NCBI GenBank assembly: GCA_965232515.1
Contig: CBDDPY010000002.1
Location: 416,001 to 480,000 of the forward strand
Reading direction: 5' to 3'
DNA length: 64,000 bases
DNA from: Alphaproteobacteria bacterium
Lineage (GTDB): Bacteria; Pseudomonadota; Alphaproteobacteria; GCA-2731375
A model generated the notes under the pieces. It was not told where the DNA came from. It was given only the letters and a program-made list of their open reading frames with translations, and made no database searches. Shown one piece after another: positions 40,673 to 63,477 of this stretch (position 1 is the first letter of the stretch; every line of letters begins with the position of its first letter). A program made the position numbers and the translations under genes.

Positions 40673-40700
40673 CAGCAGGCCATCGATTTTCTCACTGGCC

Positions 40701-40772
40701 CTGGATGCCCGTGTCAAGCACGGGCATGACGCTCAACCAATCGTCATTGCCGGGCTTGACCCGGCAATCCAG
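40701..40772. repeat. REP doublet, family B (CGTC-ended)
   Basis: CTGGATGCCCGTGTCAAGCACGGGCATGACG and CGTCATTGCCGGGCTTGACCCGGCAATCCAG; second copy at 63316-63404. Confidence 0.85.
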
Positions 40773-43661: not shown

Positions 43662-43766
43662 CATGCTTCGAGACGCCCGCTAACGCGGGCTCCTCAGCAT
43701 GAGGCCATTGCCTAGTTTCCTCGGCCTTGTGCTGAGGAGCGCCCGTAGGGTGCGTCTCGAAGCATG
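43662..43766. repeat. REP doublet, family A
   Basis: CATGCTTCGAGAC-hairpin-CTCCTCAGCATGAGG (43662-43704) and an inverted copy (43725-43766). Confidence 0.88.
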
Positions 43767-47725: not shown

Positions 47726-48340
47726 ATGACGAAGCGTCTACAGTCGAAATACAAGCTCAATCGGCGCCTGGGCCAGAACCTCTGGGGTCGCCCGAAGAGC
47801 CCCGTTAACAAGCGCGAATACGGCCCTGGCCAGCACGGCCAGCGCCGCCGTAAGCCGTCGGATTTCGGCGTTCAGCTCGCCGCCAAGCAACAGCTCAAGG
47901 GTTACTACGGCAACATCACCGAACGGCAGTTCCGTCGTGCCTATCAAGAGGCGGTCAGCGCCCGGGGCGACACGGTCGAAAACCTGATCGGCTTGCTCGA
48001 ACGCCGGCTCGACGCCGTGATCTATCGCATGAAGTTCGTGCCGACGGTGTTCTCGGCCCGGCAGTTCATCAACCACGGCCATGTCAAGGTGAACGGCCAC
48101 CGCGTTAACATCCCCAGCTACCGGGTGCGCGAGGGCGACGTGATCGAGGTCAAAGAGAAGTCGCGCGAGCTGCCGCTGGTGCTGGAGGCGGTCGAGTCGT
48201 CCGAGCGCGACGTGCCGGAATACATGGACGTCGACTTCAAGAAGATGGTCGGCACCTTCGTGCGCACGCCGAAGTTCGCCGACGTGCCCTATCCGGTCCA
48301 GATGGAACCCAATCTGGTGATCGAGTACTACTCGCGCTGA
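47726..48340 (+). CDS. rpsD: 30S ribosomal protein S4
   Basis: [31 protein letters not shown] and VIEYYSR motifs. Confidence 0.98.
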
Positions 48341-48361
48341 TCCGGATAAGTCACTGATCTC

Positions 48362-48389
48362 AAAGGGCCGCCACGACGCGGCCCTTTTT
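48362..48389 (+). terminator. Rho-independent terminator of rpsD
   Basis: AAAGGGCCGC-CACGAC-GCGGCCCTTT stem-loop ending in a T run. Confidence 0.85.
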
Positions 48390-48418
48390 CGTTTCGGTGC
48401 CGTCGAACTTTCTGCACG

Positions 48419-48516
48419 CACCCTTCGAGACGCGACTTCGCCGCTCCTCAGGGTGAGGGAGGTTGTCTAATGCTCCTCGCCCTGAGGAGGCCCCGCCAGG
48501 GCCGTCTCGAAGGGCG
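48419..48516. repeat. REP doublet, family A (left flank of the GIY-YIG gene)
   Basis: CACCCTTCGAGAC..CTCCTCAGGGTGAGG (48419-48458) and an inverted copy (48475-48516). Confidence 0.9.
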
Positions 48517-48808
48517 ACGTGCCGGATGTTCTCCGCCTAGAAAGCGCTTTCAGAGCCGCAAAGTCTCCGCGTATCAGAGCCTCTTTCTTGGCACGGCTCC
48601 ATCCCTTCAGTTGCCGCTCGGCGGCGATCGCATCGGTGATGCGTTCGAAGTGCCGATGAAAGACGGGCTCGACGGGACGCCGGCGCTTTGTATAGCCGCC
48701 GTATGTGCCAGCGTTGTGTTCTGCGACTCGACTTTCGAGGCTGGTTCGGGTCGAACCGACATAATAGCTCCCGTCGGCGCAGCCCAGGATTTAGACGAAG
48801 GCCGTCAC
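48467..48808 (-). pseudogene. GIY-YIG nuclease (UPF0213/YhbQ-like) with an in-frame TAA at codon 6
   Basis: Manual translation from GTG 48808: VTAFV*ILGCADGSYYVGSTRTSLESRVAEHNAG..YTKRRRP..AIAAERQLKGWSRAKKEALI..; the stop replaces the Tyr of the VYIL motif. Confidence 0.88.
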
Positions 48809-48830
48809 TACTCTGCCAATGTCTCGCCAG

Positions 48831-48937
48831 CACCCTTCGAGACGCGGCTTCGCCGCTCCTCAGGGTGAGGGAATGCTTTTGATATCAACACGTTACCTCA
48901 TGCTGAGGAGCCGGCGAAGCCGGCGTCTCGAAGCATG
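48831..48937. repeat. REP doublet, family A (right flank of the GIY-YIG gene)
   Basis: Unit at 48831-48870 and an inverted copy at 48896-48937. Confidence 0.9.
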
Positions 48938-61614: not shown

Positions 61615-61714
61615 CACCCTTCGAGACAGCCCCTTCGGGGCTTCCTCAGGGTGAGGCTTATCATTTGATACCCTCACGCTGAGGAGCCCGCGAGAGCGGG
61701 CGTCTCGAAGCGTG
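61615..61714. repeat. REP doublet, family A
   Basis: CACCCTTCGAGAC..TTCCTCAGGGTGAGG (61615-61656) and inverted CCTCACGCTGAGGAG..GTCTCGAAGCGTG (61672-61714). Confidence 0.88.
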
Positions 61715-63315: not shown

Positions 63316-63404
63316 CTGGATTGCCGGCTCAAGCCCGGCAACGACGAATTGTTGCAGGTATCGAACGCTTCTTCGTCATGCCCGTGCTCGACACGGGCAT
63401 CCAG
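63316..63404. repeat. REP doublet, family B (CGTC-ended)
   Basis: Both units match the 40701-40772 units with 1-2 mismatches, in inverted orientation. Confidence 0.85.
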
Positions 63405-63477
63405 AGGCAACGAGTGCGGCCGGCAACGTTTTTCACCTGTCTCTGGATCGTTAACCCGACCTGTGTAAGATGCCGCC

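Follow-up and report, generated by a model that had tools for sequence, protein, structure and literature searches.

A decaying repeat-nuclease-repeat cassette in an alphaproteobacterium and its probable place in a second family of small GIY-YIG nucleases with a cognate hairpin repeat

The locus described here, a broken gene for a small GIY-YIG nuclease between two inverted doublets of a hairpin repeat, lies in a 64,000-nucleotide stretch of an alphaproteobacterial genome (the window). We regard it as rather probable that this is a decaying repeat-nuclease-repeat cassette of a second cognate nuclease/hairpin family, which would work like Ssn/SRM without being Ssn. The branch to which the gene belongs and the repeat are a cognate pair that co-occurs both at individual loci and across genomes. 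The concept is not new: cognate hairpin repeats on either side of small GIY-YIG nuclease genes, and the comparison with RAYT/REP systems, were published in 2025 (Chenal, PMC11893778); the window has another branch and another repeat. What this study adds is the presence of two orthogonal pairs in a single genome, sites both filled and empty, an account of how a direct repeat arose, and the condition of the pseudogene. The original prediction of a REPtron-like cassette is borne out by the tie between gene and repeat, by the repeat-rich hosts, and by turnover at syntenic sites, but its concept had already been published for Ssn/SRM, and the spreading of the repeat is something that we infer.

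The pseudogene (48467-48808, minus strand) encodes in 113 codons a single-domain GIY-YIG nuclease of a UPF0213/YazA-like branch outside Ssn. Its frame starts with GTG at 48808 and ends with TAA at 48467, and it matches the Pfam GIY-YIG domain with an E value of 4.5e-13, in agreement with the minus-strand gene that had been proposed between the two doublets. As was also proposed, the frame runs through one repeat unit (48475-48516) and terminates in the spacer of that doublet. Codon 6 is an in-frame TAA (48793-48791, minus strand) in place of the first conserved tyrosine, which is present in 75 of 76 scored homologues, and the motifs YVGST, R..EHN, and AERQLKGW are present downstream. An internal stop codon is absent in 78 of 79 homologues (the best 79 of 190 confirmed).

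Contigs from two sequencing runs of one sample, possibly the source of the window (X1 and X2), are identical to the window over 48200-48861 with zero differences, which excludes an assembly slip at the TAA. A 380-bp contig from a run of another study (X3, RNA data; the cover there consists of contigs only) has seven differences from the window and a tyrosine at codon 6. Five of these differences are listed, four of them coding (codons 6, 9, 26, and 52) and one silent, and at each of the four codons the X3 residue agrees with that of the copy in the congener G001. The identity of the X1/X2 contigs, together with the tyrosine in the near-identical X3 contig, indicates that the stop codon at 48791-48793 is real and recent, as had been supposed. 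However, the gene does not stand a single change away from an intact one: compared with X3, it has also lost the consensus residues at codons 9, 26, and 52, and these additional losses show that it is decaying. The window gene is thus a recently broken, drifting copy. Among four close copies of the gene family, dN/dS was 0.06-0.12, indicating strong purifying selection. No match to a sigma-70 promoter was found at the locus. One X1/X2 contig joins across 48524-48811 of the window with undetermined letters between, and may represent the intact paralogue described below or a deletion variant.

An intact paralogue with 73% DNA identity to the window gene is found in the same genome (G000:C2:5570397-5570738), flanked by units of the same repeat family. 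Only three pairs of repeat clusters in this genome (n = 64 clusters) lie less than 1 kb apart, and two of these pairs enclose the two paralogues.

The window contains eight repeat units in four doublets (43662-43766, 48419-48516, 48831-48937, and 61615-61714). The unit at the 5' end of the cassette (48831-48870, minus strand) directs its CCTCA tag away from the gene, and so does the tag of the unit at the 3' end (48475-48516, plus strand), which is translated as the tail of the protein. The upstream doublet is completed by an A/T-rich spacer of the standard doublet type (48871-48895) and an outer unit (48896-48937, plus strand), and the downstream doublet by a short spacer holding the stop codon (48459-48474) and an outer unit (48419-48458, minus strand). 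The doublets at 43662 and 61615, which had been described as free of any gene, are both members of the same family, with tags inward. Counting by sequence patterns, which took the place of the genome-wide covariance search proposed earlier, gave 96 strict units in 60 clusters, with 36 doublets, in the genome of 7.39 Mb, compared with 1 and 0 units in two block-shuffled genomes.

Read on the tagged strand, a unit combines a tag (CCTCA in 77/96) with a short outer stem, a TGAG...CGAA core that does not vary, and a variable inner hairpin. The outer stem has 5 bp and is broken by the GA/GA core, and its first pair is A:T in 73 of the 96 units. Both stems covary, with Watson-Crick pairs in 91, 93, and 96 of 96 units against shuffled means of 48, 46, and 44, although these counts are not a probability because the copies are related. 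The core fits the tandem sheared G-A motif known from DNA oligonucleotides. Units are located just 3' of stop codons, and peptides encoded by the repeat (motifs chosen by eye) occur in 59 of 150 distant proteins versus 4.1 after shuffling. An Rfam search with seven loci returned no family that accounts for the repeat.

The tags point inward in all 36 gene-less doublets, and the spacer is equally long in 23 of the 36, with a GATATCAA-like motif at its center. An exact match to the IHF consensus was present in 5 spacers and a match with at most one mismatch in 16 (shuffles, 0.02 and 0.53), and the spacer of the upstream doublet in the window matches exactly at 48883-48895; because the copies are related, the matches point to a conserved IHF-type motif, a putative site only, and not to binding. 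In the BIMEs of E. coli, an IHF site lies between two REPs. The fixed-length A/T-rich spacer between inverted units, with the IHF consensus in some copies, resembles this arrangement; however, the repeat sequence is unrelated, and the IHF site here is a putative one. Binding of IHF to REP elements is mentioned in PMC1525189, and in a table of PMC6907758 the IHF consensus stands in the H-NS row, apparently swapped.

The 43-bp direct repeat reported between 48418-48460 (plus strand) and 48830-48872 was confirmed, with one mismatch. Near rpsD, G001 has a tandem array in the order unit-gene-doublet-gene-unit. The first copy of this array shares both spacers with the window, the short spacer of the window resembling the junction spacer of the array, and the outer unit of the window ends where the leader of the second cassette starts. 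The unit at 48419-48458 is orthologous to the first unit of the second cassette in G001, which explains the direct repeat: it is what is left of a second tandem cassette, namely its first unit, and so a relic of a head-to-tail pair. A second copy is rare (2/199 loci). An empty rpsD-esterase site with a single doublet, which had been anticipated in relatives, was not seen: the region after rpsD has neither gene nor unit in 18 other relatives, two of which have the esterase directly behind rpsD. Between rpsD and the tandem cassette, G001 (L107) also has a segment of about 150 bp with a terminator-like hairpin, present twice, and about 1 kb of A/T-rich DNA.

The association of gene and repeat was analyzed in several sets of homologues. 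With a pattern derived from the window genome only, a unit was found within 200 bp in 35 of 79 loci (the best 79 of 190) and on both sides in 27, and 84 units were counted in 31 kb of near DNA compared with 18 in 279 kb of far DNA. A general pattern, built after inspection of the flanks of these loci, found a unit at 79 of the 79 and two-sided flanking at 60, at densities of 6.9 versus 0.13 per kb (same best 79 of 190), the tags facing outward at 51 of these two-sided loci. In later sets the values were 22/23 (two-sided, 18/23; this set includes the two genes of the window genome and one plasmid match) and 14/20 (7/20), and among distant metagenomic members they were 78/80 (55/80; the best 80 of 563). 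The REP enrichment expected near homologues was therefore found in each set, and within 200-250 bp it amounts to about 40- to 50-fold over distant DNA, the loci being partly kin or from the same genome and the near DNA being intergenic where the far DNA is mostly coding. Plasmid matches to the gene comprised 22 records, only 3 of which exceed 50% identity, and viral contigs carrying one distant member yielded no locus.

The same association is seen across 250 genomes of the class, in which profile members scored at least 112 bits and all others at most 76 (two fragments left out). The gene was present in 18 of 40 repeat-rich genomes (at least 8 units; one of the 40, G051, is marked unpublished and is also a row of the tree described below) versus 2 of 210 others, an odds ratio of 85, compared with 24/40 versus 53/210 and an odds ratio of 4.4 for Ssn as a control. 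One of the two gene-bearing, repeat-poor exceptions has 23 units of a tag variant, and when this variant is counted, only 1 of 20 gene-bearing genomes has fewer than eight units. In 20 gene-bearing genomes (five untyped or mixed ones left out), the units next to the gene and the dispersed units tend to be of one subtype (six short, nine long, one discordant; p 0.011), although p-values overstate the case because the genomes are kin, and the short-subtype pattern also matches inside long units, which blurs the comparison. Repeat subtype on the protein tree requires 13 changes versus 25.9 when shuffled, a weak result because gene and flanks are inherited together.

The gene was missing in 22 of the 40 repeat-rich genomes, and a wider profile search of the five richest of these found no gene or remnant. 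It had been considered that such genomes might hold a cognate RAYT instead of the nuclease. The absence of the gene from these 22 agrees with the first half of that possibility, but not one of 10 Y1/RAYT loci (two in the window genome and eight in four of the five repeat-rich gene-less genomes) carries a unit, which, for these loci, speaks against RAYT as the partner of the repeat and supports the proposal of a system without one.

Comparison with G001 showed that the repeats and the cassette turn over between congeners, where an absence may reflect loss as well as gain. The paralogue cassette is missing at the syntenic site of G001, which has 128 bp of other DNA where the window genome has 561 bp. 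G001 has 134 units in total, and 70 of its repeat loci were compared with the window genome. Of these, 26 mapped on both sides, with the unit absent from the window genome at 25, and 54 mapped on at least one side, with the unit absent at 46 (a degenerate unit being adjacent at one of them). Another element, bounded by terminal inverted repeats, encloses six of the 25 filled sites, and some doublets may therefore be carried by a DDE transposase; the other 19 sites have no such inverted repeats. At about 10% divergence, the filled/empty junctions showed no consistent target duplication and no fixed boundary. The 79 loci (best 79 of 190) fall into 53 gene contexts, the largest of which has 14 loci (L012, L015, L018, L019, L052, and nine more; the neighbors of L012 are presumably gatA and gatB), pointing to either old vertical residence or a preferred site. 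Nested elements were also noted, in which an SRM-type doublet lies inside a window-family doublet (G000:C2:6769167-6769468; L341, L342, L345, and L358), and in G001 both nested doublets are enclosed by an element whose terminal inverted repeats are of the CAGGCTG type.

These data also bear on the main rival explanation, namely, that the enzyme cuts the repeat but serves the host, by limiting recombination of incoming ssDNA, like SsnA in Neisseria, or by clearing extruded hairpins, and that the repeats are spread by other enzymes, as passengers of MITEs, or by recombination. We consider it unlikely, although it is the alternative that survives best. A host function would agree with the strong purifying selection, with the one context shared by 14 of the 79 loci, and with the only in vivo role shown for SsnA in the accessible part of the Ssn report, which is to lower transformation (PMC11893778); against it, the cassette occurs in 53 contexts, is missing at a syntenic site, and forms tandem copies. 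Spread by other enzymes would account for the repeat-rich genomes that have no gene and for the six filled sites in a terminal-inverted-repeat element, but 19 of the 25 sites are without those inverted repeats, and gene-bearing genomes are almost never repeat-poor.

According to the accessible part of PMC11893778, SsnA of Neisseria meningitidis is a 94-residue GIY-YIG protein of cd10448 that binds the NTS hairpin only as ssDNA and cuts a few bases upstream, an SRM is nearby in 71% of SsnA homologues, and the criteria for Ssn are cd10448 as the top CDD hit and a BLAST E value below 1e-10 to Neisseria SsnA. Its Discussion likens NTS-ssnA-NTS to IS200/IS605 and REP-associated transposases, and a mobile origin of the Ssn pairs was raised but not tested; UPF0213, cd10456, and YhbQ are not mentioned in the same part of the text. 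In this study Ssn denotes likeness to the SRM-flanked protein of the window genome, so that membership is judged by proxy. Both systems have a single-domain GIY-YIG gene of about 95 residues between tagged hairpins that are also dispersed in the genome; proteins of the window branch have 94-150 amino acids with Pfam GIY-YIG as their only domain (model pLDDT, 87). Unlike Ssn, the window branch lies outside the SRM-flanked clade and nearer UPF0213/YazA, and its repeat, with an interrupted stem and an invariant TGAG...CGAA core, has no SRM match; the anchored SRM pattern with two substitutions allowed matched none of the four local units. The orientation also differs, neighboring units of the window family having tags inward in 36/36 cases and neighboring SRMs of the same genome having tags outward in 13/13.

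An SRM was found beside the window branch in 0/79 (best 79 of 190), 0/23, 0/20, and 0/80 (best 80 of 563) loci, whereas of 40 Ssn-like loci, 21 had an SRM and 2, which belong to a divergent Ssn-side branch, had the window-family pattern. The window genome has a true Ssn pair as well (C2:3988675-3988968, L002), an intact gene between two SRM doublets with four SRM matches, and the flanks of this gene have no unit of the window repeat family. The two nuclease/hairpin pairs are thus kept separate across loci, and also within this one genome. In a tree of 45 rows and 97 columns (rows hand-picked for spread from 90; three fragments and the pseudogene left out), all Ssn-like rows, including the divergent Ssn-side branch, lie across a branch of about 1.3 with 100/99 support and the window family lies outside; an earlier tree, whose careful search was unfinished, gave the same split. 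The window family and YazA/YhbQ are separate groups, and the fork between them has no clear order.

The paralogue scored 64 bits against B. subtilis YazA, 51 bits over 73 residues against the local Ssn, and 34 bits against E. coli YhbQ in BLASTP. The closest structures by sequence were 1ywl (E 1e-12) and 1zg2 (E 1e-11), both UPF0213, and the top two in Foldseek were UPF0213 proteins, followed by Slx1. Among solved structures, the UPF0213 proteins (YazA, YhbQ, BH0048, and EF2693) are thus the closest in sequence and fold, but YazA/YhbQ-type genes lie in operons without repeats, and eight such loci had neither an SRM nor the window-family repeat. NCBIfam has no model for the window branch, and the open-access literature contained no report of this branch with its repeat, which older closed papers or figures may catalogue.

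These comparisons make it improbable that the window family is a divergent member of Ssn (cd10448) with an SRM variant missed by the published pattern. The 51 bits to the local Ssn are near the cutoff of PMC11893778, but YazA scores higher, and the nearest solved structures are UPF0213. The window repeat does retain a C-TCA tag and the A:T first pair, and repeats of the Ssn-side branch share the TGAG...CGAA core at two loci; these similarities stand against the long, well-supported branch and the lack of any SRM in the four sets.

Several further loci were noted. Two CGTC/SRM-type doublets with tags inward lie in the window (40691-40772 and 63316-63414). A third kind of small GIY-YIG gene (G000:C2:836400-836620, L004) is situated directly 3' of a tRNA gene with other hairpin motifs upstream, and its relatives L111, L117, and L127 have similar upstream hairpins. 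The divergent Ssn-side branch (L114, L161, L123, L118, and L129) has repeats with a TGTCA tag, some of which share the TGAG...CGAA core, and this branch is possibly a link between both systems.

Returning to a second nuclease/hairpin family, we consider it very likely that the enzyme recognizes its repeat, and there is good reason, by analogy with SsnA, to expect that it would act on ssDNA, cutting the tagged strand on the 5' side of the tag; for a role in spreading the repeat, the arguments are evenly balanced. The nearest functional model would be SsnA, which acts on ssDNA and cuts beside a hairpin, and not SLX1 as in the original prediction. The enzyme would bind the tagged strand in its single-stranded or extruded state, and its cut would lie a few bases to the 5' side of the tag. 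Where the tags face outward, this would place the two cuts beyond the ends of the cassette, one on each strand; in gene-less doublets, both cuts would lie within the spacer, which forms the loop once the hairpin is extruded. GIY-YIG enzymes hydrolyze DNA and are not known to have a joining step; host repair of the cuts could move or copy cassettes and doublets. The intact paralogue might supply the enzyme in trans, so that the repeat population would keep turning over, as is thought for RAYT and REPINs.

It is also conceivable, but quite improbable, that gene and repeat form an RNA-level pair, in which the hairpins are transcript elements bound or cut by the protein. TTCG is a stable RNA tetraloop. 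Many inner loops read TTCG, units stand directly after stop codons, and covariation fits RNA and ssDNA equally; however, with respect to the gene, units lie on either strand, the closest structures are DNA-acting or uncharacterized GIY-YIG domains, and SsnA shows neither RNA binding nor RNA cutting in the accessible part of PMC11893778. That a dispensable small gene merely collected repeats like any intergenic-rich site can hardly be upheld, for although repeat-permissive genomes hold more of both nucleases (Ssn odds ratio, 4.4), the near-total flanking, the fixed orientation, the SRM exclusion, and the lack of repeats beside YazA/YhbQ, SLX1-like, or Y1 genes all speak against chance.

If the family is a cognate pair of the proposed kind, it resembles REPtrons (bioRxiv 10.1101/2021.07.10.451892, as far as accessible) in that gene-less inverted doublets are scattered in intergenic DNA, the enzyme gene lies between units of an identical family, repeats persist in gene-less genomes, and dispersed gene-less doublets differ between relatives (36 doublets; 46/54 sites unshared with G001). 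It differs in that there is no HUH/Y1 enzyme, the tag is CCTCA (77/96) and not GTAG, and the gene occurs at many sites and in tandem copies; RAYT, by contrast, has been characterized as non-jumping. A CGTC-tagged REP superfamily was reported to "apparently lack a dedicated transposase" (Di Nocera 2013, PMC3733652). In the accessible part of that paper, these REPs are likewise alphaproteobacterial, with a CGTC/TGTC/CCTC tag and an A:T first pair, but their 8-9 bp stem, 4-5 nt loop, CCA tail, and tags-outward dimers are absent here. Three core motifs of the window repeat were not found in the supplements of PMC3733652, a comparison that covered the supplements and not the consensus sequences of its Figure 2.

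How CGTC-type repeats spread without a transposase is a question left from 2013 (PMC3733652). We tentatively suggest, as something that falls a little short of an even chance, that small GIY-YIG nucleases may be the missing movers of non-GTAG REP families, with several orthogonal pairs per genome: a UPF0213-derived branch without transposase chemistry would spread cassette and doublets by cutting ssDNA beside the tandem-GA hairpin, with host repair joining the ends and IHF bending the spacer. If so, this branch would mark a step from housekeeping YazA/YhbQ to Ssn. The window branch extends the nuclease/hairpin partnership past cd10448 and adds to it nucleases that probably act on ssDNA in a sequence-specific way and recognize a different target. 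In the window genome, both kinds of enzyme are present in intact form together with their respective repeats, and the congener offers filled and empty sites.

The repeat itself is a target of insertion. Eight copies of a 1.18-kb IS with DUF772 and DDE_Tnp_1, which we take to be IS5-like, all lie at one position in the outer stem (G000:C2:310570, 1209177, 2049235, 3237311, 3350275, 4328490, 4628114, and 5273059) and are accompanied by a 5-bp duplication, perfect in five of the eight. IS elements that target REPs are known (PMC1525189).
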